Positions 7,774 to 24,113 of a DNA stretch of 64,000 bases are shown in pieces (positions within the stretch are counted from its first letter, which is position 1; every line of letters begins with the position of its first letter). The position numbers and the translations under genes are program-made. The DNA lies in NCBI GenBank assembly GCA_964360585.1, contig CAYHXC010000004.1, positions 15,366 through 79,365 of the forward strand. Reading direction: 5' to 3'. This stretch comes from an uncultured Candidatus Saccharibacteria bacterium. Its GTDB lineage: Bacteria; Patescibacteriota; Minisyncoccia; UBA6257; 2-01-FULL-56-20. The notes below the pieces were generated by a model, which did not search any database, was not told where the DNA came from, and saw only the letters and a program-made list of their open reading frames with translations.

Positions 7774-8952
7774 TTACTGTCTGATACGGATGTTAATTAG
7801 TTCTTCACTATTCTTTTTTTCTACGGCCACAGTTGTTGTTCCCTTTAAAAGATCGCTGTGTACTTCGACGCCAATCGTTCCGGAAACACTGCCGCCATGC
7901 TCGCTTGAACTTCCAGTCTCCAAGGGGAGGGCTTCGTCGCGATCAGCATCATTTTTCTCGTCAGTTTGCATCTCACTTCTCACATCTACTGCCGTCTTGG
8001 ATTCGTGGGCGATCCGAATAGCATCATTTGCCAGGTTGAATGCTTCGCCGTACAGACCAGCTTCATTTTTTACTTTGGCTTGGATCAAAAGTTCGTCGGA
8101 CAGCGTAAGAAGAGCTTCGATTTCCGAGGCATTCTCGAGACGTAGTTTATTCTCTTTTTTTGCCACGTATTTTTTTGTTTCGAGCAGTATCTTCCCAGCC
8201 GCCTTAATCTTAGCGTTCGCGGCGTGTTCGGTGCTTGAGCTGTTATCGGACTTAATTTTTTTCTCTAGTCGAACCCGGGTTTCGGTGGCGGATGAGAGCG
8301 CCTTACTGATTTTTGTTTCCAGTCGAGAGGGAGGGGGCGCGGCTTCAGGGAGGGCGATTTTTGCGCTCATCATCATTGTTGCTCCGGTGTCGCTTTGTGC
8401 GGTGCGAGCAGCAATTTTCTCATGACCCTGAAGTGTGCCCTCAAATCGCGCCGCTAAACTCGCGGCCTCACGTTCCTTGCCATTTTCCTCAAGTTTTGCC
8501 ATATGCTCCAGTGTTTTTTCCTCATGCGTTTCAAACTCGTCCGAGAGTTCGGTTTCAGTTTTCGCGTCAAGTTTCCCTTGTAGCGCGAGGCGCGATGCTT
8601 CTTCGAGACGACGACTGGCCAGTTCAGCCTCCCAATCGCCTTTAGCCTCTACGCCAAACGAGAGAGCGCCCACGACTGGTTCGTTCACCTGTTTTTTGAC
8701 AATATAGAGCAGATCGCCGGGCAATGTTTTCTCGGCTGCCAGCGAAGTTCCTCCGCCGATCAAAAAGATAATCACAAAAATGATAGCGGGCACTTTGGTA
8801 AGTTGGTACAAGAAATGACGACCGACAGGTTTTTTGATAGCGAGATCAGCCTCAATGAGACGGCTTAAATTGCCGCGAATGATATTTTTGCGTTCAAGGT
8901 CGAGACGGATCTCGTTCCGGGCTTTTTTCAGTTGTTCAAAAAGTGGTTCCAT
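7774..8952 (-). CDS. putative anti-sigma factor (single-pass membrane protein)
   Basis: located immediately downstream of the ECF sigma gene; cytoplasmic N-domain, TM helix VPAIIFVIIFLIGGGTSLAA, extracytoplasmic coiled-coil domain. Confidence 0.5.
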   Translation of the reverse strand: MEPLFEQLKKARNEIRLDLERKNIIRGNLSRLIEADLAIKKPVGRHFLYQLTKVPAIIFVIIFLIGGGTSLAAEKTLPGDLLYIVKKQVNEPVVGALSFGVEAKGDWEAELASRRLEEASRLALQGKLDAKTETELSDEFETHEEKTLEHMAKLEENGKEREAASLAARFEGTLQGHEKIAARTAQSDTGATMMMSAKIALPEAAPPPSRLETKISKALSSATETRVRLEKKIKSDNSSSTEHAANAKIKAAGKILLETKKYVAKKENKLRLENASEIEALLTLSDELLIQAKVKNEAGLYGEAFNLANDAIRIAHESKTAVDVRSEMQTDEKNDADRDEALPLETGSSSEHGGSVSGTIGVEVHSDLLKGTTTVAVEKKNSEELINIRIRQ

Positions 8953-8957
8953 GGATT

Positions 8958-9455
8958 TTAAAGTAACTTCTTTAAGGATTGCATTGCCCGATTGAGTTTT
9001 ACGGAAACGTTATTGGCCGTGATATTCATTATTTCGGCAATTTCCTTAGGGTCAAGGTCGTCAAAATAGCGAAGAGTGAGAAGCGTTCGTTCGTCTTCTT
9101 CGAGATCAGCCATCTGTTCTTTGATGTTTGCAAGAAGGGTGTTCCGTTCGATGTCTTTATGTCCGGCATACGACGGTTCGGCAATCTGATCATTCTCGAG
9201 CATCGCATCAAGTTCCGCCTCTTTTTTCTTTCGCGATTCGTCGATGATCAAGTTTGTGGCAATTTTATAAAGCAGAGCGCGGATGTTTTCTATCTCTTTT
9301 CCGTCGGACATATAAACCCAGAGTTTAGTAAAGGCTTCCTGCATTAGATCCTCGGCGCGAGCCTTGGAGTAGACGCGAAAGTAGCAGTGGCGGTAGATCG
9401 CCTCGGCATGGTCATCATATGCTTGGAGAAAAATATTTTTCGGATTTCTTGCCAT
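8958..9455 (-). CDS. ECF-type RNA polymerase sigma-70 factor
   Basis: region 2 (EDLMQEAFTKLW) and region 4 HTH (EIAEIMNITANNVSVKLNRAMQSL); 165 aa. Confidence 0.8.
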   Translation of the reverse strand: MARNPKNIFLQAYDDHAEAIYRHCYFRVYSKARAEDLMQEAFTKLWVYMSDGKEIENIRALLYKIATNLIIDESRKKKEAELDAMLENDQIAEPSYAGHKDIERNTLLANIKEQMADLEEDERTLLTLRYFDDLDPKEIAEIMNITANNVSVKLNRAMQSLKKLL

Positions 9456-9588
9456 AGTCTGTGACGTTGAGATTGGGTCCTTCTTTCATATTATATACCA
9501 CTACTCGTGGTCAAGGAGGTAAGAGGGAAGTTCATGATCCGTCGTACATACAAAGGTCGCGTATTATGAACCTTTTACATTTAACTCT

Positions 9589-10521
9589 ATGAACAAAAAA
9601 ACATTTATCGTTTCGTTACTCGCAGTAGCCGTCCTCGTCGGATCTCAGGCTGTCCTTGCGAAAGAGCAAGTAGCGCACAAAGAAAATAAAAAAAGTGAAT
9701 CACATCAAGAAGTGAAAGCGCATACTTCTGTTGCGCCTTCAATTCCCTCCAATACTTCCTTAGAAATTGGACAAAATGGTCGAGTCAACATATCCGATGC
9801 ACGCGTCATGAACATTTCTGGATCAGTCATAACAGCCACGACCAGTTGGGGTGGATTCACCATGGTCTGGACGATCAACGTGAATGGCAATACAAACTTC
9901 AACGCTCGCTATGGCGGAGTCTTGAATCTCGAGAATATTGCTCCCGGCGATCACATTAGTGTCAAGGCGACGATTACCGGAAACGGCCCGACAGTGCTCG
10001 CCTCGGCCATCACCGATCTCTCGATGCAACGTCGAAACGCTACCTTCTTGGGAACCATTACGAGTATTAATTCGGGAGCACAGAGTTTTGTGGTGAATAC
10101 GAAAGAGCGTGGTTCGCAAACAATTCTTGTTTCCTCGTCGACTAAGTTTTTGGGAACGCTCAACAACTTTTCTGCTCTGACTATCGGAGCCAAGGTGCAG
10201 ACGAGTGGTATCTGGAACTCAGATCAGAACTCGCTTCAAGCCGCTCATGTTTTGATCTCCAAAGAGAAACAGAACGAAGAGCGTGTTTTCCAGGGAACGA
10301 TCAAATCAGTGAATGCCTCCACGACACCGCAAACAGTTGTGGTGCACATTGAAAACAGTGATCAGACAGTTACGCTTGCCGCTGACACGGTGATTCTCAA
10401 TTTCTCCTGGCAGCATGTACCGCTTACTGCCTTCAAAGTAGGGGATATACTTCGTGTCTATGGTATCGGCCAGGATCTTTCGATCGGCGCCACCGTGGTT
10501 CGAGATATTAGTCTGAAATAG
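9589..10521 (+). CDS. secreted protein with repeated beta-rich domains
   Basis: signal peptide MNKKTFIVSLLAVAVLVGSQAVLA; internal repeats (ISGSVITAT / ITSINSGAQ / IKSVNAST). Confidence 0.5.
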   Translation: MNKKTFIVSLLAVAVLVGSQAVLAKEQVAHKENKKSESHQEVKAHTSVAPSIPSNTSLEIGQNGRVNISDARVMNISGSVITATTSWGGFTMVWTINVNGNTNFNARYGGVLNLENIAPGDHISVKATITGNGPTVLASAITDLSMQRRNATFLGTITSINSGAQSFVVNTKERGSQTILVSSSTKFLGTLNNFSALTIGAKVQTSGIWNSDQNSLQAAHVLISKEKQNEERVFQGTIKSVNASTTPQTVVVHIENSDQTVTLAADTVILNFSWQHVPLTAFKVGDILRVYGIGQDLSIGATVVRDISLK

Positions 10522-10985: not shown

Positions 10986-11228
10986 AAAAGCTACTATTCA
11001 ATTGATGCCCTATTATATGCGATAAGTCAGCATTTGTCAAGTGCCGGTTCCTCCCCAGTTTTGAGGAGAAACGACCTGTCCCGCCATAGCTTTAGCGGCG
11101 GCGGACAAGAATCAATAATGCCTTAGGTCAAAAAAGGAGTCAAGGCAAGTTCGGGATAACCTCTGTATAGGCAGTGGATAAGGCGTTTTCCGGTTATTTA
11201 TGAAAAGCGCATGTTAGAATGACATACT

Positions 11229-11795
11229 ATGGGATTTGATTCATTACCAAAGAATGAAGGAGATATTTCAGAGGCTGATTTAGAAGCACTGAGACAGGAA
11301 CTGGTTCCCATTTTTGATCCGCGATTTTCCACGGCTGGGCATGGGACGAATTTGGAGGCGGCTGAACAGGCCATTCAGGAAGGTTTGTATGCTCGGCAAG
11401 CTCCGAGTTTGGAAACAACTGCTCTGGGACTTGAGGATAATGATAAAGATTTAAAAAAGATTCTTGCATGGCCGCACGGAAAGCCGCAAGCCATTGTCAT
11501 CATTATGCTTCCACGAGACATGGAACGAACTTACGGTGGAGTGGGCCCCGAGGAACACTTGTGGGAAAGTTCTAATAACGAGTTGAATCCCTACCGCCTA
11601 CCGAAAAAATATATTAAGGGGTACATAAACATAGAAGAAAGAAAGTTAGTTCTCAATCCTGCCTTTGAAGAAAACCCAACGATGCCCCCTCCCATCCTCC
11701 ATAATGCTGACATTTCAAAAATAGGAAGAACCTCAGATACGCCAGTAGAAATTCCTAAGGCTAATTCAGGTGATTCTGGTGAGGACGTTTGGTAG
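11229..11795 (+). CDS. hypothetical protein
   Basis: 188 aa ORF, acidic, no motif. Confidence 0.4.
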   Translation: MGFDSLPKNEGDISEADLEALRQELVPIFDPRFSTAGHGTNLEAAEQAIQEGLYARQAPSLETTALGLEDNDKDLKKILAWPHGKPQAIVIIMLPRDMERTYGGVGPEEHLWESSNNELNPYRLPKKYIKGYINIEERKLVLNPAFEENPTMPPPILHNADISKIGRTSDTPVEIPKANSGDSGEDVW

Positions 11796-11808
11796 GCTTT
11801 TTTGTAAT

Positions 11809-12234
11809 TTAGCCCTCAGGGTTTATAGAAAGGAGTTGAGAAGACTTTTCAATCTCTTCTTGTGATAAATCTTCCCAAAGGTCGCTAATCTGTGTTTTTT
11901 TGTGGAGGGGGTCGTTCGCCTCTCGAGGATGGAGATGGAAGTGGAGATGGCTTACCTTTACACGTCCTTGCGGAATAAAAGGCCGATAGTTCTGCCGGAT
12001 ATCGCAACCAGGGGCTATGTGCTTCAAAGTTTTCTCTTCGAATTCAATTAATAACTCCATGATCTCTTTCCGTTCCGCTTCGGTGGTTTCTGATAATTTT
12101 TCCAGGTGTCGTTTGGGGATTACGAGTAGATGCCCGGACATGAGTCGGGGATTTGAAAGACAAACATAGGCCAGTGCGCCTTCTTTTAAAATCCGGGTTC
12201 TGGTGAGATCGAGATCACAGAATGGGCAGTCCAT
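11809..12234 (-). CDS. HIT-family (histidine triad) hydrolase
   Basis: HIT motif HLHFHLHPR; 141 aa. Confidence 0.75.
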   Translation of the reverse strand: MDCPFCDLDLTRTRILKEGALAYVCLSNPRLMSGHLLVIPKRHLEKLSETTEAERKEIMELLIEFEEKTLKHIAPGCDIRQNYRPFIPQGRVKVSHLHFHLHPREANDPLHKKTQISDLWEDLSQEEIEKSSQLLSINPEG

Positions 12235-12317
12235 TTTTGGATGATACCATAAAGCCGATCCAAGTTTACAAAGACAGGAGAGAGTGTTATTTCTTGGAGT
12301 AGTAGGAAGGGATAGTC

Positions 12318-12638
12318 ATGGGAAAACAAGAACGTGTCTGTGGTAGTTGCACTGCCTGTTGTAAAACTCATCCTGTTTTCGAACTGTTCAAGCTTTGGAA
12401 CGCATGGTGCACAGAATGCCAGGTTGGCAGGGGCTGTCGTATTTACTCCAATCGTCCGAAAGGGTGTCAAGATTTTCAGTGCCAGTGGCTTATGGGATGG
12501 GGCAAGGATGATGAGCGGCCCGATCGGACAAAGTTAGTTCCCGACTTCATTGAGCTTGGAGAACTTGGGTTAACTCTTATGCTCCATGAAGTTACAGAAG
12601 GATCTCTCTTAAATGGCTTTGCGAGGAGATGCTGGTAA
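12318..12638 (+). CDS. Cys-rich YkgJ/UPF0153-like zinc/iron-chelating domain protein (possibly frameshifted)
   Basis: CGSCTACCKTHP (CxxCxxCC) plus additional Cys pairs; ORF stops 10 nt after an overlapping ATG of the next ORF. Confidence 0.5.
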   Translation: MGKQERVCGSCTACCKTHPVFELFKLWNAWCTECQVGRGCRIYSNRPKGCQDFQCQWLMGWGKDDERPDRTKLVPDFIELGELGLTLMLHEVTEGSLLNGFARRCW

Positions 12639-12844
12639 TGACCTGCCGTGGCGAGAACTGTTCGGTGCTACACCTCTTTGAAGAGAGAATCCCGCAGCCA
12701 TACTTGAGTATTGGGGATTGGAATGCCTTCTTGGGCAAGCGTGTCCAGAGTAGTTGGAAGCTACCGATGCTTGACCGGGTTTTCACTGACTACCAAGAGG
12801 CGCTCCTTGCAGTGTTCAAGGGGATTTATGCTGGTCGTGCTTAG
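12629..12844 (+). CDS. hypothetical ORF, possibly the frameshifted C-terminal part of the YkgJ-like gene
   Basis: overlaps the upstream ORF by 10 nt in the +1 frame; ends at the island boundary. Confidence 0.25.
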   Translation: MLVMTCRGENCSVLHLFEERIPQPYLSIGDWNAFLGKRVQSSWKLPMLDRVFTDYQEALLAVFKGIYAGRA

Positions 12845-12848
12845 CCAA

Positions 12849-13520
12849 TCAAATCTCCACCCAATCTCGGAACTGCCCGATTGTCTTGGCGCCAAGGGTG
12901 TAGTGCCGCACTAGCGGGCAGCGGACCCAGTCGGCTTTTAACGGAAAGCGGGCATGGATATTGTGATAGACCGTCAGTCCGAGTTGGGGAGCGTCACCGT
13001 CCCAGAGGACGCCAATAGCACTAAGAGAGGTATTGGCGCTTGGTGTCACTCTCTTTTTGCCGCGTGGTGCGAAGTCGCGCTCCAGTACCGTTGGCGTCTG
13101 GCAGTTGGTAGCTATCGTAAAGGCCTCAAGACCGTACATAGCCGTCTTGATCGCGTAGGGGTCAGTATGGCGACATGTGAGCTTTGCCACGTTGTTGTAG
13201 AGAACGAGCAGCGTGGGCGATACTCCTTTTGCAAGAGTTCGCAGCTGGCGGGCTCCTTTATCAATTTTCTTTCGAGCGCGGTCGCCGGGTTCACCGCCAA
13301 AGACACCAGTTGACCCTCTTAGCTCCAGTTCCTCAATCAGCCGTTGCTCCTCGACTGTAGGATCGAACTGCTTGACCTCAGCGATCACTCGTTCGCCAGA
13401 CAAAACAAGTTCGTAGTCAGGACGCTCCTCTCCCTCATCTTCCGCGGTCTCAATGCGTCTCCAACGGACGTTGTTGCGGTCACAGAACTCCTCGAAGAGT
13501 TGTTCAGATTTGGTTGGCAT
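12849..13520 (-). CDS. PD-(D/E)xK nuclease-like protein (restriction endonuclease fold)
   Basis: RPDYELVLSGERVIAEVKQFD matches the PD...(E)xK core; last gene of a 3-gene overlapping operon. Confidence 0.4.
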   Translation of the reverse strand: MPTKSEQLFEEFCDRNNVRWRRIETAEDEGEERPDYELVLSGERVIAEVKQFDPTVEEQRLIEELELRGSTGVFGGEPGDRARKKIDKGARQLRTLAKGVSPTLLVLYNNVAKLTCRHTDPYAIKTAMYGLEAFTIATNCQTPTVLERDFAPRGKKRVTPSANTSLSAIGVLWDGDAPQLGLTVYHNIHARFPLKADWVRCPLVRHYTLGAKTIGQFRDWVEI

Positions 13521-14355
13521 GTTGACCGTGTGGCGCGGCGCCCCGCGAGTCTTTCGTGACCGCGAGAAACACTAGGCGTTCGTAGAATGCGAGTACCCAG
13601 GCCATGTGGTGAGGATGAGCTGGGTCAAATGTGTAGAATGCATACAGGAAGGCGGAGTCTCCGATGAAACGAGACTGCCCGTCGTTTAGGACCTGCTGCG
13701 TTATGGCCGCCACGCGATGGACGGTTTCTTCGCTGCGGATCGCTGGCGGATGAAAATGCACGATTTTCACCGAGATATCCTGCGGCAGGATCGTTCGCGT
13801 TTCATGGAAAAACAGCCCTCTGATTATTCTCTCCATAACGCGGTTCACACGCACATAGTCGACCTTATAGCCGACCTCCGTGCCCAGCAGGATGCCCGAG
13901 CGTGTCCATTGATCCACAAAGCGCAGACTCCCACTGAATGCCTTCCTAAAACCTGCCTTCCGCGCGTTACTCAAAGCCGAAAGGACGCTCTCGCGTGCAC
14001 GGAGCGCGACGGGATGTTCCCCCGCTTCTCGACTCAGGGTGAGAATCAGACAGAGGTACTCATCGTCCTTGGACGCGTTGCCATTGCACGTCCGGCACGC
14101 TGGCACACAGACCAAATCTCGTTGTGCGACCTTAGGCAGTGTGCACTGAGGCGGCAGATGATCGGCCGTCAACTGCGTGTTACCACCGCAGTAAACGCAC
14201 TGGTCGCTCAGCCAGCGCCGCCTGTAGTGCCTCCTCTTCCCCACGACCACCTCGTTGGTTAGAGAATACCATCCTCGAGAAGTCCAGCAAAGATCATCGG
14301 CCTTCTGGCGTGAGCGAGACCAGTCAGTCGGCCTTGCCAGACTTTCTGCGGTCAC
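13504..14355 (-). CDS. HNH endonuclease domain protein with extended C-terminal domain
   Basis: CVYCGG...TADHLPP...CRTCNGN (CxxC-DH-CxxCN HNH signature); overlaps neighbours by 17 and 32 nt. Confidence 0.55.
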   Translation of the reverse strand: MTAESLARPTDWSRSRQKADDLCWTSRGWYSLTNEVVVGKRRHYRRRWLSDQCVYCGGNTQLTADHLPPQCTLPKVAQRDLVCVPACRTCNGNASKDDEYLCLILTLSREAGEHPVALRARESVLSALSNARKAGFRKAFSGSLRFVDQWTRSGILLGTEVGYKVDYVRVNRVMERIIRGLFFHETRTILPQDISVKIVHFHPPAIRSEETVHRVAAITQQVLNDGQSRFIGDSAFLYAFYTFDPAHPHHMAWVLAFYERLVFLAVTKDSRGAAPHGQHANQI

Positions 14356-15556
14356 GCGCCTCTACTGCCTGAATCAGTGAACGAAGATGTTCGTGCAACC
14401 GCTGCCTTTCCCCAGGAGACATGCTCGCTTCGTCTGCCGAACGTGGCCGCATGTGCCGCTCCCATAGTTTGCACGTGATCGAGTCCTCTTGGGGCGGCGG
14501 GTACCAACCATATTCCCCTTGTCGCTGCCGCCTTTGCTCGTCGCTTAGGCTCTGCCACTCAGCCGCCATCGCGCGGAGGTCCCGCTTTAGCTCTGTCGCT
14601 TGGACAAACTCTTGGTCCTCACGAAGGAAGAGCTTGGCTAGGTCGGCGTGCAGCTTGTCGCCAGAGACGAATGCCATGCAGAAGGGAAGGTAGAAGCAGT
14701 ACTCCAGATCGAGGCGGTTTGTCCGTCTGGTTCCGATCAGTCGGTCGCGGAGGGCGATGATGAAGGACAGCTCGACACGGAGGCAGTACGCTGCGTACGG
14801 TGCAAAGCGATCAAGGTAGGTAGCGCCTGACTCAACCCACCGCATCTTGATGGCATCCCGTGCGCTCGCCGGTAGGTCGTGCTCTTCGAGCAGCCATTCC
14901 AGCAAGGCCTGCTGGATGGTCAATTGCGCAAGGAGGTTATCCAAGGCCTCACGAACCTGGGTGAGGGAGGAACAGGACGGAATGACTAGGTACGCCCGTT
15001 TGAGGCGATCACGATGCACAGTAAGATCTATTTCCGCAGTCGTGCGTCGCCAACGACTTGCCAATGCCTCCTCTGCTTCCTCGAACATTCCATCCTGCCA
15101 TCGCATGATGGCCCAGCGCTCCGGTGGGGTATCGATGAAGACGCCTGCTTGACCGTCCGCGGTGTGAATAGGTTCGCCCCCGCCAACCACACAGCTCCCC
15201 TGCATTGGCACAAGATTGCCCAGTAACGACCCAGCGCAGAGGGTACGGTAGTCCGCATTGATGCCGGAGTCTCCCTCGCGGAGCTTCCGAGCGAGACGCA
15301 CTACTTCACCGGCCGAGAGCAACTGTGAACGTTCAATCTTCTTTAGGTCCGCGAGGATCTCCATGATTAGAATCGGGACGACGTTCACGTAGTAGTGCTT
15401 CTGAAGGAAGTCGATTTCCTCTCCAGAAAGCCCCTGCAGCGCTGACTTGTCCAGGATTACGATGGGACCCATGGGCAGCGCCATGATAGCGCGCGGTGAC
15501 GCACATGGCAGCCCGTCACCGGCACCATGCATTTTGACTTTCGTCGAAGAAGCCAC
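14324..15556 (-). CDS. hypothetical 410-aa protein (first gene of HNH/PD-(D/E)xK operon)
   Basis: long GC-rich ORF, no recognisable motif; likely start at MGPIVILDK. Confidence 0.4.
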   Translation of the reverse strand: MASSTKVKMHGAGDGLPCASPRAIMALPMGPIVILDKSALQGLSGEEIDFLQKHYYVNVVPILIMEILADLKKIERSQLLSAGEVVRLARKLREGDSGINADYRTLCAGSLLGNLVPMQGSCVVGGGEPIHTADGQAGVFIDTPPERWAIMRWQDGMFEEAEEALASRWRRTTAEIDLTVHRDRLKRAYLVIPSCSSLTQVREALDNLLAQLTIQQALLEWLLEEHDLPASARDAIKMRWVESGATYLDRFAPYAAYCLRVELSFIIALRDRLIGTRRTNRLDLEYCFYLPFCMAFVSGDKLHADLAKLFLREDQEFVQATELKRDLRAMAAEWQSLSDEQRRQRQGEYGWYPPPQEDSITCKLWERHMRPRSADEASMSPGERQRLHEHLRSLIQAVEARDRRKSGKAD

Positions 15557-15636
15557 GGAGCTGAGACCTCGTCAGCGAACCGGAGATCGGCGCCGACAGT
15601 TGCCGGCGACGCGGCTTTCGCCGATGATGCTCTGCT

Positions 15637-16599
15637 ATGCGCGGCCACCAAACTAACAAGGCGCTGGAAAGAGAGCGCCAAGCCATCGTGGACTACATGG
15701 CAATGTCAGCCCCCGACGAACGCGCCGAAAGCTTGGAGAAGATTAAGTCCGAACTGGTTCTCGGTCGACAGATTGACGCGTGGGACGTCCACACCGACCG
15801 CGAGCGATGGTGGGTCCTGACGGCGCCGATCAACTTGTACAATCAGAAGCAGTTTCCAAGTCTCGACGTCGCCTTCTCGTTCCATGTTGGATTGATGGCT
15901 CGCGTGATGGAGCACGGCGATCGGACAGCCCGACCCGAGCAGGCCGCACGGTTCACGCGTGCGTGGCGCACTTGGGAGGGCGCTGCCAATGCTCTCGATG
16001 AGGCGGATGCGACAGAGGAGTTTCAGGCGATCGGGATGCGGTGCCGAGAGAGTCTTCTTGCGTTCGTGCGGGAAGTGGCAAAGGTTGCGCACATCGATGG
16101 CACGCCGCCCAAGGCGGCCGACTTCGTCGGCTGGTCTGACGTGTTGGCCAACACGATTGCCCCAAGCGACGGCGCCGAACGACGGCGTGGCTATTTGAAA
16201 GCGATCGCCAAATCGACCTGGGAGCTCGTGAACTGGCTCACTCACTCTTCGAGCGCTACCCGATACGACGCCCACTTCTGCATCGAGGCGACGGAGCACG
16301 CTCTTCGCACGTGGTCTCTGGCGATCCTGCGGCACGAAGTGGGGGTTCCCGAGCGTTGCCCGAACTGTAGCTCCTATCGACTGACCTCATGTTCTCACCC
16401 AATCGGAAAGGGAGTTGTCCAGCACTTCACTTCCTGCGACGTGTGCGACTGGCAAAGCGATCCTGAACACCGGCGTGCACACGGAGGCAAGGAAGAGTCG
16501 CACCACCGCCGAAAACGCAAGCCGACGACACCGTGCGTGTTCGTCGATGTCCCATTGGTAGGCAACCCACCGCCGCCTCCGACGAGGACACGTAGGTAG
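15637..16599 (+). CDS. hypothetical protein with C-terminal Cys4 zinc ribbon
   Basis: CPNCSSYRL...CDVCDW; divergent from the nuclease operon. Confidence 0.4.
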   Translation: MRGHQTNKALERERQAIVDYMAMSAPDERAESLEKIKSELVLGRQIDAWDVHTDRERWWVLTAPINLYNQKQFPSLDVAFSFHVGLMARVMEHGDRTARPEQAARFTRAWRTWEGAANALDEADATEEFQAIGMRCRESLLAFVREVAKVAHIDGTPPKAADFVGWSDVLANTIAPSDGAERRRGYLKAIAKSTWELVNWLTHSSSATRYDAHFCIEATEHALRTWSLAILRHEVGVPERCPNCSSYRLTSCSHPIGKGVVQHFTSCDVCDWQSDPEHRRAHGGKEESHHRRKRKPTTPCVFVDVPLVGNPPPPPTRTRR

Positions 16600-16964
16600 C
16601 GCAGTCAAACATTGCTCGACAAGCTCCCCCACCGGAATGAAACCCGTTCCCATTAGTCAGCGCGGCAAGCTCGGTAACGCCGGCCGTGGATTCGGCCGCC
16701 GCGCGTACATTGCGCGGCTCCGCAAAGAGCTCAGGGACGGTTATCTCCGCGAGAATGAGACCAATCTTCAGCTTGCCAGCGAGTGGTTTCACCTCGATGA
16801 CGGGGCTGAACAAGACGTTGGACTGGGGATGAGCCCAGCATAGCCCAGGCGATCCACTCTTCCGAGCCGCAACGGTTGCCGTTTTTGCCTCGCGGCGTGC
16901 GGCCATGGCCGGGGCGGTGACGCTCAGGATTTGACGAATTGCGGTCAGTGAGTAGACTGAATTC

Positions 16965-17204
16965 ATGCCTCTCAATGTCACCAAGCAAACCGAGCAGGAG
17001 ATCGAAGAAAAGGTCCGTTCCGGCGGCTACCAGTCGGCCGATGAGCTCATCCAGGAAGGCCTGGCGCTGATCGAAGCGCGGGAAGCGTTCCGCCGAGCGG
17101 TCGCCGAAGGCCAGGCGGAGCTGGACCGCGGTGAGTACGTCACACGGGAAGAGTCGCGCCGGCGCATGGCCGAGCTCGCTGACCGTTACCGTCAGCGAGG
17201 ATGA
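16965..17204 (+). CDS. parD: ParD-family RHH antitoxin
   Basis: 79 aa, GGYQSADELIQEGLALIE motif of COG3609-type antitoxins; ATGA overlap with downstream toxin. Confidence 0.7.
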   Translation: MPLNVTKQTEQEIEEKVRSGGYQSADELIQEGLALIEAREAFRRAVAEGQAELDRGEYVTREESRRRMAELADRYRQRG

Positions 17205-17497
17205 GCCAGGCGTATCGGCTCGCCCCCCGCGCCCAGGCCGACGTCGAAGACATCTTCCGCAAAATCGCTGACGACGACTTCGAGGCTGCTCTCCGCGTTG
17301 ACCGAGAAATCGACGAAGCCTGTCTCCTGCTCTCCACGCACCCCCAGATGGGTCACACGCGAGAAGATCTCGGCATTGGCGCGACGTATCGCGTCTGGCC
17401 GATCTACTCCTACTTGATCATCTACCGCCCCGACTCTGATCCCCTCGAGATCGTCCGCGTCTGGCACGGCGCCCAGAAGAAGCCGAGCCTATTCTAG
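17201..17497 (+). CDS. parE: ParE/RelE-family toxin
   Basis: 98 aa, YRLAPRAQADVEDIF...YLIIYR...LEIVRVWHGA typical ParE. Confidence 0.75.
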   Translation: MSQAYRLAPRAQADVEDIFRKIADDDFEAALRVDREIDEACLLLSTHPQMGHTREDLGIGATYRVWPIYSYLIIYRPDSDPLEIVRVWHGAQKKPSLF

Positions 17498-17761
17498 AGC
17501 ATCGTATCATCGCGACGGCCGTCGTTTCCGAACTGCAACGGTTGCGGTTTTCGCGGGATCATCAGGGAAAATCCGGGACTTTTGGGGACTCCGCTTCTTC
17601 GGCGGCGACCCCTCTGGAACCGTTGAACCACAAGACTTTCCAGCGTTTTCTTCGCTCTCGATACCTTTGCACCCATCAACGCGGCTGCATACCAGATCGC
17701 TGGCTGGGGGTTATCGACCACACGTGGTCTCTTCTATACGCGCTCGATCATTCGAGGGATC

Positions 17762-18595
17762 TTGGTTCAATCTAATATTGTCACGCCGGAAGGTGATGGT
17801 ACCGTTATTGTCACGAGCGCGGAGGCAATGAAGGGCGCGACCAAGACGTATTACTTTGATATTTTTAGCTATAACCGCGCTGTGGATGAAAGAATTGATC
17901 ACGGTACGATCCTTAGTGCAAAGCACGTACAGGATCAGATTGTGGCACTTCTGAAAGGAAACGAGGCTCCTACTCACACGACGATTACGAGGCTCAAGCC
18001 GACACGACAATCTGTTACCCGCAAGGTAACAGCGCAGTCCCCAGTCTTACTGCATCTCTTTGACAGTTCAGGTCGCCATACTGGGCCACTGGGTGCACTG
18101 GGCGCGGAGGAGCAGATTCCCAACAGTCGATACGATCGCGGAACCGGGATCCAAACACTCTATTTCGACGATGCGGACACCTACAGCGTACAAATCGTAG
18201 GGACAGGAAGTGGGGTGGTTCACTTGACAGTCGAAGAATTGCTTGGCGAGGCTCTCGTCGAGACGGTAACGTATTCCGGCATTCCGGTGACTCCGGTATC
18301 GACCGCTCAATTTGATTTTGCGACGATGGCGGACTCCCACCGAGTCCACGTGGACGCGAACGGTGACGGCCGTGTGGACTTCGTGAGCCGACCGGATTCA
18401 GAGATGCTGCGAGGAGACCTCGATGGAGATCGAGACGTTGATCTTGTCGACCTCGGGTACGTTTTGGCGGTCCGGAATACGTCCGCGGTGGGGACGCGAG
18501 ATCCTCGGGATTTAGACAGTGACGGCAGGATAACAACCCTCGACGGGCGAAAACTGCAATTGCTTTGCACACGAGCAAGGTGTGCTGCGAACTAG
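17762..18595 (+). CDS. dockerin-domain surface protein
   Basis: C-terminal duplicated Ca-binding dockerin-type repeats DLDGDRDVDLVDLGYVLA and DLDSDGRITTLDGRKL. Confidence 0.5.
   Translation: MVQSNIVTPEGDGTVIVTSAEAMKGATKTYYFDIFSYNRAVDERIDHGTILSAKHVQDQIVALLKGNEAPTHTTITRLKPTRQSVTRKVTAQSPVLLHLFDSSGRHTGPLGALGAEEQIPNSRYDRGTGIQTLYFDDADTYSVQIVGTGSGVVHLTVEELLGEALVETVTYSGIPVTPVSTAQFDFATMADSHRVHVDANGDGRVDFVSRPDSEMLRGDLDGDRDVDLVDLGYVLAVRNTSAVGTRDPRDLDSDGRITTLDGRKLQLLCTRARCAAN
18036..18213. repeat. 178-bp exact direct repeat (copy 1; copy 2 at 18894-19071)
   Basis: identical nucleotide stretch inside two adjacent paralogous genes. Confidence 0.8.
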
Positions 18596-18613
18596 TATGC
18601 TATAATCCAATAC

Positions 18614-19300
18614 ATGAGAGTCAGTGCATCTCCAGAGAGGAGACGGACAGGCGTCGTTGTACTTGCAACGGGCTTGCTGTTCGCGGGATTGCTGATTTGG
18701 AAAGGCACCCACCTAGTTGCTGGTTGGATGAACGTGCCAAGCGAGCAAGAGTCGAGTCATTTCTCTGAGGATGTATCACAAGAGAACAGTGTGAGACCGA
18801 AGGGGCAGGAGAACATTCGACACTCTGATGCTGAAGGGCGTTACCACTACGTGATTGTTGAGAGTAGCGTGCTAGAGCGGGACAACTTATCAGAGTCCCC
18901 AGTCTTACTGCATCTCTTTGACAGTTCAGGTCGCCATACTGGGCCACTGGGTGCACTGGGCGCGGAGGAGCAGATTCCCAACAGTCGATACGATCGCGGA
19001 ACCGGGATCCAAACACTCTATTTCGACGATGCGGACACCTACAGCGTACAAATCGTAGGGACAGGAAGTGGCGAGTTTGCGGTACGGATAGGAGCCTTTG
19101 TCGTGAGTGGATCGGAAGAGAGGTTGGTCGCTCCTTTGATATTTCCGGTTCCAATAGTTAGCACAGCGGACCTACGCGCACAGATGACTATCATCGAACG
19201 CATTGATCAACGAACGAAACTTGAGATTGACGTTGATGGAGACGGAGTGGTGGATGAGAGGCTGCAAAGTCGTCCTGATGCAAACAGGGAGAACATTTGA
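18614..19300 (+). CDS. membrane-anchored paralog sharing a 59-aa identical segment with upstream gene
   Basis: N-terminal TM VVVLATGLLFAGLLIW; segment SPVLLHLFDSSGRHTGPLGALGAEEQIPNSRYDRGTGIQTLYFDDADTYSVQIVGTGSG identical to 17762..18595. Confidence 0.45.
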   Translation: MRVSASPERRRTGVVVLATGLLFAGLLIWKGTHLVAGWMNVPSEQESSHFSEDVSQENSVRPKGQENIRHSDAEGRYHYVIVESSVLERDNLSESPVLLHLFDSSGRHTGPLGALGAEEQIPNSRYDRGTGIQTLYFDDADTYSVQIVGTGSGEFAVRIGAFVVSGSEERLVAPLIFPVPIVSTADLRAQMTIIERIDQRTKLEIDVDGDGVVDERLQSRPDANRENI

Positions 19301-19302
19301 CC

Positions 19303-19902
19303 TCACTTGGTGCCGCCTTGAATTTTTCGTGCAACTCCAAGGCAAAGAAGGGCTGCCAGAAGCAGTTGTAGCGTATCCGGAAGTGGGACAGCCCTTACGG
19401 ACCCGTTCGACACGGTGGCTGTTAAGGGATCTCCGAACGAATCTCCCAGCGCATTGACCGACAGGTCCAACGAACTCTTCCCGGGCGACCCGGAGAGGAA
19501 CGTGATTGTCGCTAGCGTGAAGCTGCCCGCTTGCAGCTCGTCAAGATCGAGCGGATCGTCAAACGAAAGCTCGAACAGGTTCAGCAGTCCAGGAACACTG
19601 CCATCAAAGGATGTAAGGCTACCCAACCCGAAGAGGTCTAGCTGATCGCCGAGCAGCGAATCCCCAAAGATAACGTTCGCGAAGGTCACGACGGTGGGAT
19701 CAAAAAATATGTCGACGTCGAAGGTGCTCAAAGAAGGCGCCACAGCATCGCCGAGACCGGATATCGTCAAGTCGACGCTAACCATGGCCCCTGAGCTGAC
19801 CACTTGCACAGAAGGATTAAGCCCGAGGATTGGAGTGCCGTTGGCACGTGTGGCCAACAGGACGATGGCCACAATTGTGCGCACAAAGACGCGGTGCATC
19901 AT
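19303..19902 (-). CDS. cohesin-like secreted protein with C-terminal hydrophobic anchor
   Basis: signal peptide MHRVFVRTIVAIVLLATRA; beta-rich VSVDLTISGL...FDVDIFFDP; C-terminal LPDTLQLLLAALLCLGVARK (PEP-CTERM-like/sortase-like tail). Confidence 0.35.
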   Translation of the reverse strand: MMHRVFVRTIVAIVLLATRANGTPILGLNPSVQVVSSGAMVSVDLTISGLGDAVAPSLSTFDVDIFFDPTVVTFANVIFGDSLLGDQLDLFGLGSLTSFDGSVPGLLNLFELSFDDPLDLDELQAGSFTLATITFLSGSPGKSSLDLSVNALGDSFGDPLTATVSNGSVRAVPLPDTLQLLLAALLCLGVARKIQGGTK

Positions 19903-20069
19903 TATCCCCCCTGCCGATGCGTTACAGCCGTGTTGATTTGCTATCAATGACAGCCTCACCCACTCCAAGCATTTTTGTCAAACGATGAAATTGCGTCCGG
20001 CTCAGGCCGGATTTTCGCTTTACTTTCGTTTATCCGGTGGTATCATGAATCTCGAACCTAATCGCCCTT

Positions 20070-21083
20070 ATGTTCGGAATAACGGGGTGGTGTGGTGCTG
20101 TGGACATGGACAACAGGGGCCTCATTCTCGGGAATAATCCCGAACATAACGTTCCGGCCATCCTCGGGGGGGCCAACCAGAGCCTGCGATCACTCGCCAA
20201 GGCGTACTTCGTAACCGAAGTAGCCGGGCAGGCTAAGGGGACGATCGAGGCCAAGCACCACGACCTCACCCGGTTCATCGCGTTCTACGAGACGCTCCTG
20301 GGTCACGACGATCCGCGCGAGTGGTACCGATCCGTTACGCGCGAGTTTCTGAAGCAGCTCGCTCACGGCGAACTGTCTCAGGCGACCATCGTCCGCACCT
20401 ACGCCAGCGTCCGGCACTTCGCGCGGTGGATCCACTTCAAAGTGAGGCCCTTCCCGCTCGGCTGCCCGTGCGATGACGTGAAGCCTCCGGCCGAACCTGA
20501 ATCCGAATGGAAAGGACTCAGCCGGGCCGACGAGCTCCGACTCCTCGGAGCGGCGCAGACGCTTCGCATCCGTCCCGGTCGCGGCACGAACCAGGGACTT
20601 CGCGATCACGCCGCGATCGCCGTCTTACTCGGATCAGGACTGCGAGTCTCGGAGTTGTTGTCGCTGAAGCGAGAACAGTACACCGGCCGCGGTTTCCGGA
20701 ACGTCCTCGTGAAAGGCGGTCGCATCCGCGACTCCGTCCCAGTGCAGAAGGAAGCCCGGGACGTACTCGAACAATGGCTCGCCGCCTGCGGCACGGATCC
20801 CGGACCGATCTTCACCACGCGTAGCGGCAGGTCGCTCACGCGCCACCAGCTCTTCGAGATTCTCCAGCGTGTCGCCGACCAAGCCAACGCCCACCGGAAG
20901 GATGGCGAGCCGATCCACGTCTCCCCACACGTGTTGAGACACACCTTCCTCCGAAAGCTCGCTGAGGAGAAGGGCGTCCACTACGCTAAGGAAGCAAGCG
21001 GACACAAAAGCGACTGCTACATCTGGCGGTACGTGAAACCAAGTCAGCAGACACTCGCCGACGCGATCGACGGCTTGGCGTAG
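20070..21083 (+). CDS. tyrosine site-specific recombinase/integrase (XerD-like)
   Basis: catalytic R...HxxR...Y: RVSELLSL, HVLRHTFLRKL, GHKSDCYIWRY. Confidence 0.8.
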   Translation: MFGITGWCGAVDMDNRGLILGNNPEHNVPAILGGANQSLRSLAKAYFVTEVAGQAKGTIEAKHHDLTRFIAFYETLLGHDDPREWYRSVTREFLKQLAHGELSQATIVRTYASVRHFARWIHFKVRPFPLGCPCDDVKPPAEPESEWKGLSRADELRLLGAAQTLRIRPGRGTNQGLRDHAAIAVLLGSGLRVSELLSLKREQYTGRGFRNVLVKGGRIRDSVPVQKEARDVLEQWLAACGTDPGPIFTTRSGRSLTRHQLFEILQRVADQANAHRKDGEPIHVSPHVLRHTFLRKLAEEKGVHYAKEASGHKSDCYIWRYVKPSQQTLADAIDGLA

Positions 21084-21104
21084 CAACACCCGAATGCTAA
21101 CAAG

Positions 21105-22601
21105 TTGCCCCGCTCAGCATCATTCGCCTTGCTCGGGCAACGGCGGTCAGCAAATCGCGCTAAGTGCATTAGTTGTGAAACACCGATGCCCACCTCGGCA
21201 AAACCAAGCGGCGCAGTGGTCGCCAAATTGCGGGCTCTTGCCCTCCAAGAGGAACTGGAAAATCGCCTCAAGCGCCACCATCCCGATGACCTGATTCCAC
21301 ACTTGGCGAGGCGTCTTGCGAATGTCCTCAAGGAACCTCGCCTCATGGCATCTTGGCCACCGCATTTTCTGGCTCACGCTATTGCAGCGAACTGTGCCTT
21401 TCACCGCCCTTGCTACCGCGATGCCATCACCGATGATCGAATCCGACGTCTGGTGAATGTATACCACCAACATCCAGATCCGGTCCCGGACTATTTTCTC
21501 GAGCAGGAGCAGCGCATCGACCTGTTCTTGATCAACACTGCACGTCAGCAGTTCTACCTTCAGCACGGCGAAGCGCAACCCGACATTGCACGTGCCATAC
21601 TTCTCTTCGACGAGAGCGCGTACGGAAAGACGCTCGTCAACATCCGCGCCCACCTTGGCTTCGGCTTTTCCGACTGGATCAAGTTCCTCTTCATACTAAG
21701 CGCGGCGGTGATGAGGCGCCCTGGCATGATCATTGAGCCCAGTTATTTTCACGACATGCCCCCGAGCATTCTCCCCGCTAGCACGATTCGTGCATTGGTC
21801 AGCGCCATCTCCCAATCTGCTCCCGACGTCGCCGCGGCATATCTAAAGCTTCGCTCGACGCTTCAAGGCTTGATATTCAATCTGTACGTCCCCAGTGTGT
21901 TTCTTAAGCGGCCCCTGTTTTGCATGACGGACGGCCATTACGTGGCAGTTCATAAACTATTTCTCCGAGGACTCATCACAGGTGGGCTATTTGATCTCGC
22001 GCGGGAGCATTCGCCAGTGACGTTCGGCGAAGAATTTGGGGACGCCTTTGAACGTTATACAGGTTCCATCTTGGCCGCTATTCCTGAAGCTCGCGTCTTC
22101 ACAGAAAAAAACTTGCAGAAGTACACAGGCAAGAAGGTGTGCGATTTCGCCGTAGTTGGCGATGCGTACGTTCTGTTTGTCGAGGCGAAGGGTACGGAGT
22201 ATCGTTCCTTATTCGCTTCGGACGGTGCCCTCCGCGGTGATAATTCGACCACAAAGCTCGGCGAGGCTGTCGACCAGGTTACATCAACAGCTCGCCTGAC
22301 GAGGAGTGGCGAGTTTCAAGAGCTCTTCGGCGATACCAGCGGGAAAAAGCTAATCGCGGGCATTGTAACGTTCCGCCATATCTATTTCGCGAATGGCGAC
22401 CCCTATTGGACAGATTTTATACTTCCGCGGGTCAAAACGGTCGATGAGGTCGCACTCGGATCCCTGTTTGCTTTTAGGCCGCAGGTCTTTGATATTCGGT
22501 CCTTGGAGATGCACTTTGGAGGCTCTGCGAGGTGGCTTCCCAGTTTTTCATTTGCCGATAAGGGGAGAGAAGAACACCCTCTATGTTCCTCGGAAGATTA
22601 A
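21105..22601 (+). CDS. hypothetical 498-aa protein, possible C-terminal PD-(D/E)xK-like motif
   Basis: KKVCDFAVVGDAYVLFVEAKG resembles a D...ExK nuclease core; otherwise no motif. Confidence 0.35.
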   Translation: MPRSASFALLGQRRSANRAKCISCETPMPTSAKPSGAVVAKLRALALQEELENRLKRHHPDDLIPHLARRLANVLKEPRLMASWPPHFLAHAIAANCAFHRPCYRDAITDDRIRRLVNVYHQHPDPVPDYFLEQEQRIDLFLINTARQQFYLQHGEAQPDIARAILLFDESAYGKTLVNIRAHLGFGFSDWIKFLFILSAAVMRRPGMIIEPSYFHDMPPSILPASTIRALVSAISQSAPDVAAAYLKLRSTLQGLIFNLYVPSVFLKRPLFCMTDGHYVAVHKLFLRGLITGGLFDLAREHSPVTFGEEFGDAFERYTGSILAAIPEARVFTEKNLQKYTGKKVCDFAVVGDAYVLFVEAKGTEYRSLFASDGALRGDNSTTKLGEAVDQVTSTARLTRSGEFQELFGDTSGKKLIAGIVTFRHIYFANGDPYWTDFILPRVKTVDEVALGSLFAFRPQVFDIRSLEMHFGGSARWLPSFSFADKGREEHPLCSSED

Positions 22602-22735
22602 ATTGCCTCCTGATTTTTGGTTTATCATTAATGGTAGAAGCTCTATCATTCTATCTGCCAGTGCTTATCCACCTCGGAAAACGTAGGTGGTTTTTTATTT
22701 TGCCAATAAAAAACCGTTGTCCAAGGGGACGGCGG

Positions 22736-23114: not shown

Positions 23115-24113
23115 ATGACCCAGCCAGTACCCGAGGAGACAATTGATGCCAGTGTTGACCAGGCGCTTCGGCCGCAGAAGTGGGCGGAGTATGTTGGCCA
23201 GGAGAAGATCAAGGAGAACTTGCGGATTATGATCGCGGCGGCCAAGCAGCGCGGCGAGATGACCGACCACATGCTTTTTTCCGGCCAGGCGGGCTTGGGG
23301 AAGACGACCTTGGCGAACTTGGTGGCGATGGAGTTGGGGAGCGGCATTCGGATTACGTCCGGGCCGGCTTTGGAAAAGATGGGCGATTTGGCGGCGATTT
23401 TGACCAATCTTGAAAACGGCGACGTGCTCTTTATAGATGAAGCGCACCGGATGAACCGGATGATCGAAGAGGTGTTGTATCCGGCGATGGAGAGTCGGAA
23501 GTTGCACCTGATGATTGGCAAAGGCCCGGCGGCGCGAAGTATTACGTTGGACCTGCCGGCGTTTACGTTGATCGCGGCGACGACGCGCGAGAGTTTGTTG
23601 TCCGGGCCATTGCGATCGCGGTTCGGCGCGACTTTTCGTTTGGAGTATTACGACCACGACGATATCTCTACTATTATTTCTCGCTCGGCCACGATTTTGA
23701 GAACACCGATTAATGAGGAAGGAATTGGAATCTTAGCGAAGGCCTCGCGTGGCACGCCTCGATTGGCCAATCGTTTGCTCCGTCGCGCGCGCGATTCGAT
23801 GCAAGTGCAAGGCGTGGCGCAGATTACCGAAGCGGTGGCCAGAGAAACCCTGCGGCTTTTGGAGATCGACGAGATTGGTCTTGAGCCGCACGACCGGAAG
23901 ATATTGGAAACGATTATTAAAAAGTTTGCTGGCGGGCCGGTCGGATTAGGAACGCTCGCCGCCGCCTTAACCGAAGATCGCGGCACGCTCGAAGAAATCT
24001 TTGAACCGTACTTGATGAAGATCGGATTTTTACAACGCACCCCAGCCGGCCGTGTGGCGCTTTCTCCGGCATACGATCACCTTAAAATCCGTCGATCAGG
24101 AGAATTGCTTTGA
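23115..24113 (+). CDS. ruvB: Holliday junction branch-migration helicase RuvB
   Basis: Walker A GQAGLGKTTLA, Walker B LFIDEAHR, sensor motifs, C-terminal winged helix. Confidence 0.9.
   Translation: MTQPVPEETIDASVDQALRPQKWAEYVGQEKIKENLRIMIAAAKQRGEMTDHMLFSGQAGLGKTTLANLVAMELGSGIRITSGPALEKMGDLAAILTNLENGDVLFIDEAHRMNRMIEEVLYPAMESRKLHLMIGKGPAARSITLDLPAFTLIAATTRESLLSGPLRSRFGATFRLEYYDHDDISTIISRSATILRTPINEEGIGILAKASRGTPRLANRLLRRARDSMQVQGVAQITEAVARETLRLLEIDEIGLEPHDRKILETIIKKFAGGPVGLGTLAAALTEDRGTLEEIFEPYLMKIGFLQRTPAGRVALSPAYDHLKIRRSGELL

Follow-up and report, generated by a model that had tools for sequence, protein, structure and literature searches.

Genomic islands have been catalogued in groundwater Patescibacteria, often with defence cargo and with donors that are mostly intra-phylum, and recent transfers from other bacteria are described as rare and hard to capture in these organisms (Gios et al., mSystems 2025, PMC12455944). 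For the Hainich aquifer it was found that mobile elements are depleted in Candidate Phyla Radiation (CPR) members, and that a few modules of mobile genetic elements link CPR with other phyla (PMC12023590). Here we analysed a 64,000-nt stretch of contig CAYHXC010000004.1 (the window, whose own numbering is used throughout), which carries a 9,880-bp GC-rich island (12633–22512) in the chromosome of a CPR bacterium. Our overall account, in which we place good confidence, is that of an integrated mobile island that entered as a circle, carries an Xer-like integrase and is of high-GC, non-CPR origin. The locus resembles the islands of Gios et al. (PMC12455944) in its groundwater CPR host, in the deviation of GC and tetranucleotide usage and in its enrichment in defence-type genes. 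Whereas those islands were predicted from composition, mostly without mapped junctions, and have mostly intra-phylum donors, the junctions described here are known to the exact base and the closest relatives lie outside the CPR.

The element is an integrative genomic/defence island of a familiar kind. With other islands of the tyrosine-recombinase type it shares a foreign composition, an integrase, an addiction module, defence-type cargo and insertion in a gene, as well as short direct repeats at its flanks and ends that join into a continuous attP, seen in a related contig (L091, described below). Unlike these islands, it was joined to the chromosome by a crossover within one of its cargo genes, and the 3′ end of the host gene is not rebuilt; furthermore, its core is 8 bp long, its host has a reduced CPR genome, and no excisionase or mobilisation functions were identified in it. 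Because the island contains no genes for a relaxase, a coupling protein or a type IV secretion system, it is not an integrative and conjugative or an integrative and mobilizable element, and it is neither a prophage nor a GMT island. Host genes that are split by a recombinase-bearing element and restored by its precise excision are known from the skin element in sigK of B. subtilis, phage phi10403S in comK of Listeria and the nifD element of Anabaena. Regulated excision of this sort is not in evidence here, and those systems do not show a split in a gene of the element itself.

What is particular to this locus is the combination of base-resolved junctions, two genes split at once, an integrase of a Binatia-type family, and cargo with a GapS1-like clade as well as a PIN-fold family that lacks annotation. 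The locus provides a rare cross-phylum case resolved to the base pair, with its insertion site, circular topology, recombinase family and likely donor type, and it shows that some 10 kb of foreign DNA, still unameliorated and bearing an addiction module and nuclease-type candidate defence genes, can become fixed in CPR cells.

A first-pass annotation, made from the letters of the window, had proposed a GC-rich island at 12845–22600 in a CPR-like chromosome and had named sliding-window GC and tetranucleotide usage as a check. Both measures agree with the proposal. GC is 0.575 over that interval vs. 0.469 for the remaining window; in 1-kb windows it rises from about 0.45 to 0.55–0.62 within the island (maximum 0.62) and then goes down again, and host chunks of 9.9 kb never exceed 0.492. 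The tetranucleotide-usage-deviation profile of the island correlates with that of the rest of the window at r = 0.65, compared with at least 0.889 for each 9.9-kb host chunk against its complement. GC at third codon positions (GC3) ranges from 0.52 to 0.80 in the island genes and from 0.32 to 0.52 in their native neighbours, with RuvB as the sole native outlier. A two-change-point maximum-likelihood fit to GC put the boundaries at 12620 and 22360. The true junctions, derived below, are 12632/12633 and 22512/22513, and the proposed ends at 12845 and 22600 were corrected to these; the refined island has a GC of 0.574 vs. 0.468 outside it. No housekeeping gene was found inside, as had been stated. 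These results confirm the compositional island and support its reading as horizontally acquired foreign DNA.

The RuvB gene to the right of the island (23115–24113) has a GC of 0.557 and a GC3 of 0.67 in a 0.47-GC genome. We asked whether this GC bump (23.1–24.0 kb) belongs to the island and decided against it, because in related CPR metagenome-assembled genomes (MAGs) the RuvB gene exceeds its surroundings in GC too, and because the protein is of CPR type, with 88% identity to a Patescibacteria MAG. The idea of a tRNA gene as the target was likewise dropped, since no tRNA lies near the island, and no Rfam family was found within it.

Both junctions fall inside genes. The features on which the reconstruction of the insertion is based are:

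12318–12632, plus strand: 5′ part of the host ykgJ-like (CxxCxxCC cysteine-cluster) gene, codons 1–105; GC 0.479
12625–12632, plus strand: attL core GGAGATGC (crossover region); the same 8-mer stands at both junctions, with mismatches on either side
12633–12844, plus strand: 3′ piece of the GapS1-like gene of the island, with the final 70 codons and the stop; 52% identical to the C-terminus of protein P0122 of L091
20070–21083, plus strand: Xer-like tyrosine recombinase (integrase); Pfam Phage_integrase PF00589 at 2.6e-19; catalytic R, HxxR, H and Y intact
21105–22512, plus strand: 5′ part of the GapS1-like PD-(D/E)xK gene, 468 codons of open reading frame (ORF); likely start at ATG 21186; 70% identical to P0122
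22505–22512, plus strand: attR core GGAGATGC, identical to the attL core
22513–22686, plus strand: 3′ part of the host ykgJ-like gene, 57 codons and stop; GC 0.443; in frame with 12318–12632 once the island is removed

When position 12632 is joined to 22513, a host ORF of 162 aa results, which homologues of 151–188 aa cover up to 96%. As it stands, the 5′ part takes up one island-encoded codon and then ends at 12638, giving the 106-aa product of the public annotations. The stretch to the right of the island codes for the C-terminal motifs PVxHLPIRG.KNTLYVP and INGR, which full-length homologues share, and one ykgJ-like homologue was found uninterrupted on a contig with a GC of 0.43 (L093). Against Pfam CxxCxxCC (PF03692) the restored protein scored 12.7 bits (E = 0.21), under the threshold of 23; the CxxCxxCC motif itself is present in it and is invariant among the homologues. 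An exact copy of the restored protein was absent from a collection of 15 billion proteins. The first-pass annotation had seen a split YkgJ-like gene at the left junction. The gene is split indeed, but its halves flank the island (12318–12632 and 22513–22686), and the 71-aa ORF at 12629–12844, which had been assigned to it as its second half, encodes the C-terminal end of the island's GapS1-like protein.

The second split gene was recognised by comparison with L091, a 4.7-kb contig from an unrelated run (SRR27674925) with a GC of 0.553. Its gene order is an integrase (85% identical to that of the island), a TIR/SEFIR gene, a GapS1-like gene that is intact and encodes 515 aa (70%) and, convergent to the latter, a homologue (71%) of i223, the hypothetical protein that stands in the same position, beside the GapS1-like fragment, at the left end of the island. 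Two segments of the window, 21221–22512 from the right end of the island and 12674–13459 from the left, align to neighbouring segments of L091. As the two ends match adjoining segments, the island is circularly permuted relative to this contig. Joining 22512 to 12633 yields a gap-free alignment with L091, with 13 identical bases spanning the join, and an in-frame ORF of 538 aa that is colinear across the junction with three homologues (P0122–P0124). A distant relative from the JGI metagenomes (L096) independently shows the same continuity, the C-terminal part of its GapS1-like gene following directly after the part homologous to the present ORF of the window (i498). The latter, 498 aa in length, runs on into host DNA, to 22601.

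The 8-mer GGAGATGC is the sole crossover position that restores both reading frames together with gap-free colinearity with L091. The restored attB reads …GGCTTTGCGAGGAGATGC joined to ACTTTGGAGGCTCTG…, and the restored attP reads …CGGTCCTTGGAGATGC joined to TGGTAATGACCTGCC…. Because the crossover lies in the 3′ part of the GapS1-like gene and in codons 103–105 of the ykgJ-like gene, both genes are split and their halves stand at opposite ends of the island. As read from these alignments, the two reconstructions show that the element was circular (or circularly permuted) when recombination within 8 bp of identity joined it to the chromosome, splitting one gene of the element and one of the host.

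A search for att direct repeats near the boundaries had been suggested at the outset. The repeat search over 11.5–24.2 kb gave no convincing boundary repeat, and the att core emerged only after the homology with L091 had fixed the crossover. An 8-bp repeat does exist, as had been suspected, but it lies 212 and 88 bp off the ends that had been proposed. Another candidate, a crossover in a 12-nt repeat GGCTYTGCGAGG (12615–12626 and 22521–22532), was rejected: with it, neither reading frame is preserved and 26 nt are left over in relation to L091. The copies of GGCTYTGCGAGG are on the host side of both junctions, and in the restored ykgJ-like gene they would be 26 nt apart and flank the 8-bp core; the repeat could be due to chance or be a recombinase-binding feature.

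An insert flanked by 8-bp direct repeats also calls to mind a transposon with an 8-bp target-site duplication, and the matches of the integrase and an HNH protein to PHROGs bring in a degraded prophage. Either origin is extremely improbable. The 8-mer is found also at the homologous position of the intact L091 gene and hence belongs to the element itself; the ends of the island are permuted halves of one gene, which a linear transposon cannot yield; and neither terminal inverted repeats nor a transposase were found in the island. As for a prophage, the integrase and the HNH protein were the sole PHROGs matches, phage structural genes were absent, and no close relatives were found in IMG/VR.

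The sharp change in composition, a coverage of no more than about 5x and the 185-nt repeat inside the island, at which some assemblies break, would all be compatible with a chimera, i.e., a high-GC contig of another organism misjoined into a CPR contig during assembly or binning. We find this scarcely credible. The supporting contigs come from the 0.1-µm fraction of Hainich groundwater well H51, in ENA assemblies of three replicates (R1, R2, R3) and in Logan assemblies of two runs (read and assembly ids include ERR3858113, ERR3858115, ERZ1292623, ERZ1292627 and ERZ1292643), and those used here (L001–L006, L092 and L094) are 99.9–100% identical to the window. The left junction (attL) is crossed by L003, L004 and L005 and the right junction (attR) by L001, L002, L092 and L094, the last of these being one 62-kb contig that starts inside the first gene of the island and passes through RuvB into downstream native genes. 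The interior of the island is spanned by these contigs too. Thus both junctions are reproduced in three replicates and with two assembly pipelines. Contig coverage is about 5–6x, alike for mostly-island and mostly-native contigs. Moreover, the junctions sit exactly where two split genes rejoin in frame, and a random misjoin would not yield that. Within what sequence data can show, a chimera is ruled out; it counts on the other side that every supporting assembly represents one well and one population.

Over 21 kb, L094 (R2) shows three differences from the window, all within RuvB (23384, 23617 and 23637; all C/G). The contig L006 (Logan, run ERR3858115; window 11192–12579) stops 46 bp short of the attL core, which could be a plain low-coverage break or a graph branch from island-free variants in that sample. 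With respect to the 185-nt repeat, the R3 assembly breaks at the repeat and that of R1 about 0.6 kb upstream.

The tyrosine recombinase at 20070–21083 had been recognised in the first-pass annotation, and the Pfam match given above bears this out. Against the XerC/XerD models of NCBIfam the protein scored 93–102 bits, far under the equivalog cutoffs. Public gene calls (ENA and Logan contigs) miss this gene and have opposite-strand ORFs instead (20190–20609 and 20634–21089, both minus strand, 139 and 151 aa). For this reason the island seems integrase-less in existing annotations, while Pfam and NCBIfam back the plus-strand ORF.

In the proposed course of events, a circle of foreign DNA and the chromosome recombined at the 8-bp GGAGATGC, the crossover probably being performed by the island's own Xer-like recombinase, whose gene lies 1.4 kb upstream of this point. 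The ParDE module may since have stabilised the island, and if it were excised exactly at the 8-bp cores, the two split genes would be whole again. CPR bacteria could plausibly take up extracellular DNA, or a circle, by natural transformation.

We lean modestly towards the Xer-like enzyme as the probable catalyst of the crossover. The same geometry might also arise by illegitimate, microhomology-mediated recombination of a circularised or fragmentary piece of foreign DNA that the CPR cell had taken up, with no part for the integrase, the island then being a dead-end passenger unable to excise, and this we regard as possible although unlikely. An intact tyrosine recombinase 1.4 kb from the junction argues for the former, as do its relatives, which are located at element edges, where toxin-antitoxin or defence cargo separates int from the ordinary genes of the chromosome. 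An overlap of 6–8 bp is typical of simple Xer/Cre-type tyrosine recombinases, and the two cores here are still identical. Several observations weigh against catalysis by the integrase and most of them favour the illegitimate route. The identity is just 8 bp, which by itself is weak (in random zones of 60 nt it has a P of about 0.05); outside it, attP and attB have nothing in common, their arms being dissimilar, and no dyad-symmetric recombinase-binding arms were seen. The crossover lies inside a cargo (defence) gene of the element, which is atypical for a dedicated attP, and it ruins this GapS1-like gene plus a host gene. Scans with Pfam, NCBIfam and PHROGs found no conjugation or mobilisation genes in the island, and no excisionase was identified in it. 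The assemblies contained integrated junctions and no excised circle, a short contig (L092) having proved to be attR, and no isogenic or syntenic empty site was found among 80 RuvB loci or by look-up in the protein collection. Downstream of the other integrases of the family, an att-like sequence was found in L091 only.

The relatives of the integrase give information on where the island came from. There are 518 homologues at E ≤ 1e-10, many of them 60–77% identical and the best 77–85%, and the named ones all belong to MAGs of Candidatus Binatia/Binataceae, 'Deltaproteobacteria' or Tectomicrobia. For relatives at 71–85% identity, each of the nine contexts examined has a GC of 0.55–0.63, which agrees with the higher-GC donor that had been postulated. 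These contexts carry genes for ParA/ParB, a Replic_Relax relaxase, TrwB, RadC/DUF2958, HicAB, ParE, Mrr and SLFN. In tetranucleotide usage the island correlates with L087 at r = 0.89 and with L091 at r = 0.87, vs. 0.65 with the host. By these comparisons a high-GC, non-CPR origin of the island appears well supported, and we infer a donor of Binatia or 'Deltaproteobacteria' type, which may have acted directly or via intermediates, perhaps through other CPR genomes. That the event was recent is suggested by the unameliorated composition and by both displaced gene fragments being stop-free. As points against this donor, the tetranucleotide signature of L088 (Binataceae) is no nearer to the island than to the host, the taxonomy comes from one gene and the few MAG proteins that bear a name, and the closest relative, L091, is a contig of 4.7 kb. 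Integrase relatives on sequenced plasmids have at most 37.5% identity.

It is also conceivable that a high-GC element circulates among the Patescibacteria themselves and that the island is not a recent non-CPR import. Of the transfers inferred into groundwater Patescibacteria, 83% come from other Patescibacteria (PMC12455944). The closest relative, L091, may stem from any host, and some CPR relatives reach a GC of about 0.555 (L013). Yet none of the nine integrase contexts is low-GC or CPR-like, the named ones being Binatia, 'Deltaproteobacteria' and Tectomicrobia; no island gene was found in 80 CPR loci; and the PEP-CTERM-like and dockerin-like signals of the cargo fit didermic non-CPR donors, if weakly. 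We therefore consider circulation within the CPR improbable and retain an origin in a high-GC, non-CPR organism.

The Binatia-type plasmid- or ICE-like elements (L087, L088–L090 and L097–L100) are similar to the island in having integrases of 71–77% identity, ParE-type toxin-antitoxin or defence genes beside int, and high GC. Unlike the island, they have ParA/ParB, the Replic_Relax relaxase, TrwB and RadC/DUF2958, and there is no common cargo. Two of them on unrelated contigs, with integrases of 75–77% identity, have in common a DUF2958-RadC pair several kb upstream of int (L087, 1105–2297; L097, 273–1387), and L098–L100 have in common int, an antitoxin, ParE and then an FGGY kinase. Such shared sets suggest that elements of high-GC hosts have a backbone that is conserved. 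In L091 a SEFIR/TIR_2 gene (1011–2444) is located between the integrase and the GapS1-like gene, where the window has just 142 nt, which suggests a hotspot of cargo swapping directly downstream of int.

Two bolder readings, to which together we would give little credence, concern what the insertion might mean. The island may be a reversible two-gene switch, in which excision rebuilds the GapS1-like gene and the host gene; if so, the defence gene of the element would be full-length in the excised form only, and both genes would be truncated in the integrated one. Or the donor lineage may be the physical host of the episymbiont. With a Binatia-like donor as physical host, the island would be a molecular clue to an otherwise unknown CPR-host pairing, and tying the donor to a co-occurring organism, if achieved, would give a hint at whom the episymbiont lives on.

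The CPR nature of the recipient chromosome was upheld by RuvB, whose relatives at 80 loci are Patescibacteria-type MAGs (Paceibacteria, Liptonbacteria, Harrisonbacteria etc.; best identity 88%), bar a few low-identity ones with other labels, and by the NCBI label 'Patescibacteria group bacterium'. The host is a Paceibacteria-type Patescibacterium. Genes of the island were found at 0 of the 80 CPR RuvB loci. The RuvB neighbourhood is not conserved across these genomes, even at 88% RuvB identity, and it yielded no syntenic empty site.

Among cargo genes of mobile islands, the closest described counterpart of the split gene is GAPS1, a single-protein anti-phage system that depends on its PD-(D/E)xK residues D313 and K328 (Mahata et al., bioRxiv 10.1101/2023.03.28.534373). 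The ORF in the window matches NCBIfam NF047931 at 5.9e-34 with 117.7 bits, and since this is under the curated score of 320 we call it GapS1-like and not a member. In the alignment of the GapS1-like family (A2), D347…E360-x-K362 is invariant, forming a PD-(D/E)xK motif toward the C-terminus. The protein is like GAPS1 in its size, the NCBIfam match, a D-to-K spacing of 15 residues, the same as between D313 and K328, and its place as mobile-island cargo. It is unlike GAPS1 in its score (117.7 vs. 320 bits), in standing on an island that is not a GMT island, and in being interrupted, with its last 70 codons displaced by 9.9 kb. The best named relative is from an Acidobacteria bacterium (44%). A scan of JGI metagenomes with the GapS1-like profile gave two distant loci (37–40%), with no integrase there, and sequence searches of PDB with i223, the GapS1-like family and the family of i410 (see below) returned nothing meaningful. 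The GapS1-like gene, now truncated, is a candidate defence gene.

The remaining features of the island are as follows:

12849–13520, minus strand: i223, conserved hypothetical, possible PD-(D/E)xK nuclease (D35...E48-x-K50), the motif being conserved in alignment A4
13504–14355, minus strand: i283, HNH-motif protein; public calls start at 14244 and give 246 aa
14324–15556, minus strand: i410, PIN-fold protein with a large helical insert; true start probably M29 (15472)
15637–16599, plus strand: i320, hypothetical, with a C-terminal Cys-rich (zinc-ribbon-like) segment; zinc-ribbon hints are sub-threshold only
16637–16843, plus strand: hypothetical ORF of 68 aa, in public annotations; no family match
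16965–17204, plus strand: ParD-type antitoxin; Pfam ParD_antitoxin 21.8 bits vs. a cutoff of 21 (marginal)
17201–17497, plus strand: ParE toxin; Pfam ParE_toxin 1e-18, 68.1 bits vs. a cutoff of 23
17762–18595, plus strand: i277, putative secreted or dockerin-like, paralogue of i228; no clear signal peptide; Dockerin_1 at E = 0.5
18036–18220 and 18894–19078, plus strand: direct repeat of 185 nt, 98% identical, inside i277 and i228
18614–19300, plus strand: i228, membrane-anchored paralogue of i277, with an N-terminal hydrophobic segment
19303–19968, minus strand: i221, putative secreted protein with a PEP-CTERM-like C-terminal anchor; Pfam PEP-CTERM at E = 0.05

The cargo consists mostly of nuclease-type candidate defence genes and three putative secreted-protein genes, whose sorting signals would be of donor type. 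The first-pass annotation had counted two nuclease-fold proteins, which is an undercount: a PIN fold is predicted from structure, an HNH protein is indicated by weak matches to hidden Markov models, and the GapS1-like gene has its PD-(D/E)xK motif, while i223 has a motif only. For i410 the PIN fold is confidently predicted, with a helical insert, about 130 residues long, interrupting it. D8, E38, D255 and D272 are invariant in 30 aligned sequences of its family and would be its acidic active-site residues; none of the 30 has a Pfam match. The family is widespread, with 1,456 representative clusters at 50% identity and no Pfam model. For i283, PADLOC gave PDC-M01B at 4.4e-6 and PtuB at 2.9e-3, PHROGs an HNH endonuclease at 2e-4 and Pfam HNH at E = 0.19. 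The one Pfam hit of i223 was to REase DpnII/MboI at E = 0.25, and its AlphaFold2 single-sequence model was unusable (pLDDT 38). Together, i410 (PIN), then i283 (HNH), then i223 (possible PD-(D/E)xK) form a candidate for an uncharacterised defence module. Two uncharacterised families are thereby flagged, the PIN-fold family without a Pfam model and the deep-branching GapS1-like clade.

The ParD/ParE addiction module that had been reported was recovered, with ParE clearly assigned and ParD just at the Pfam threshold; against TIGR02606 the antitoxin scored 33.8 bits (2.6e-8), below the cutoff of 46.2. The two genes overlap by 4 nt (17201–17204). The surface-protein genes of the first-pass annotation are found again as i277, i228 and i221, with the reservation that the dockerin and PEP-CTERM hints behind them are weak and sub-threshold; i221 also matches floc_PepA of NCBIfam at 7.4e-4, far below the cutoff. 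The 185-nt repeat in i277 and i228 is the result of a recent duplication or gene conversion, and i277 may be a 5′-truncated copy. Outside the island, to the left of its neighbourhood, a native cluster (7774–10521) has an ECF-type sigma-70 factor between DUF5667 and DUF5666 proteins.

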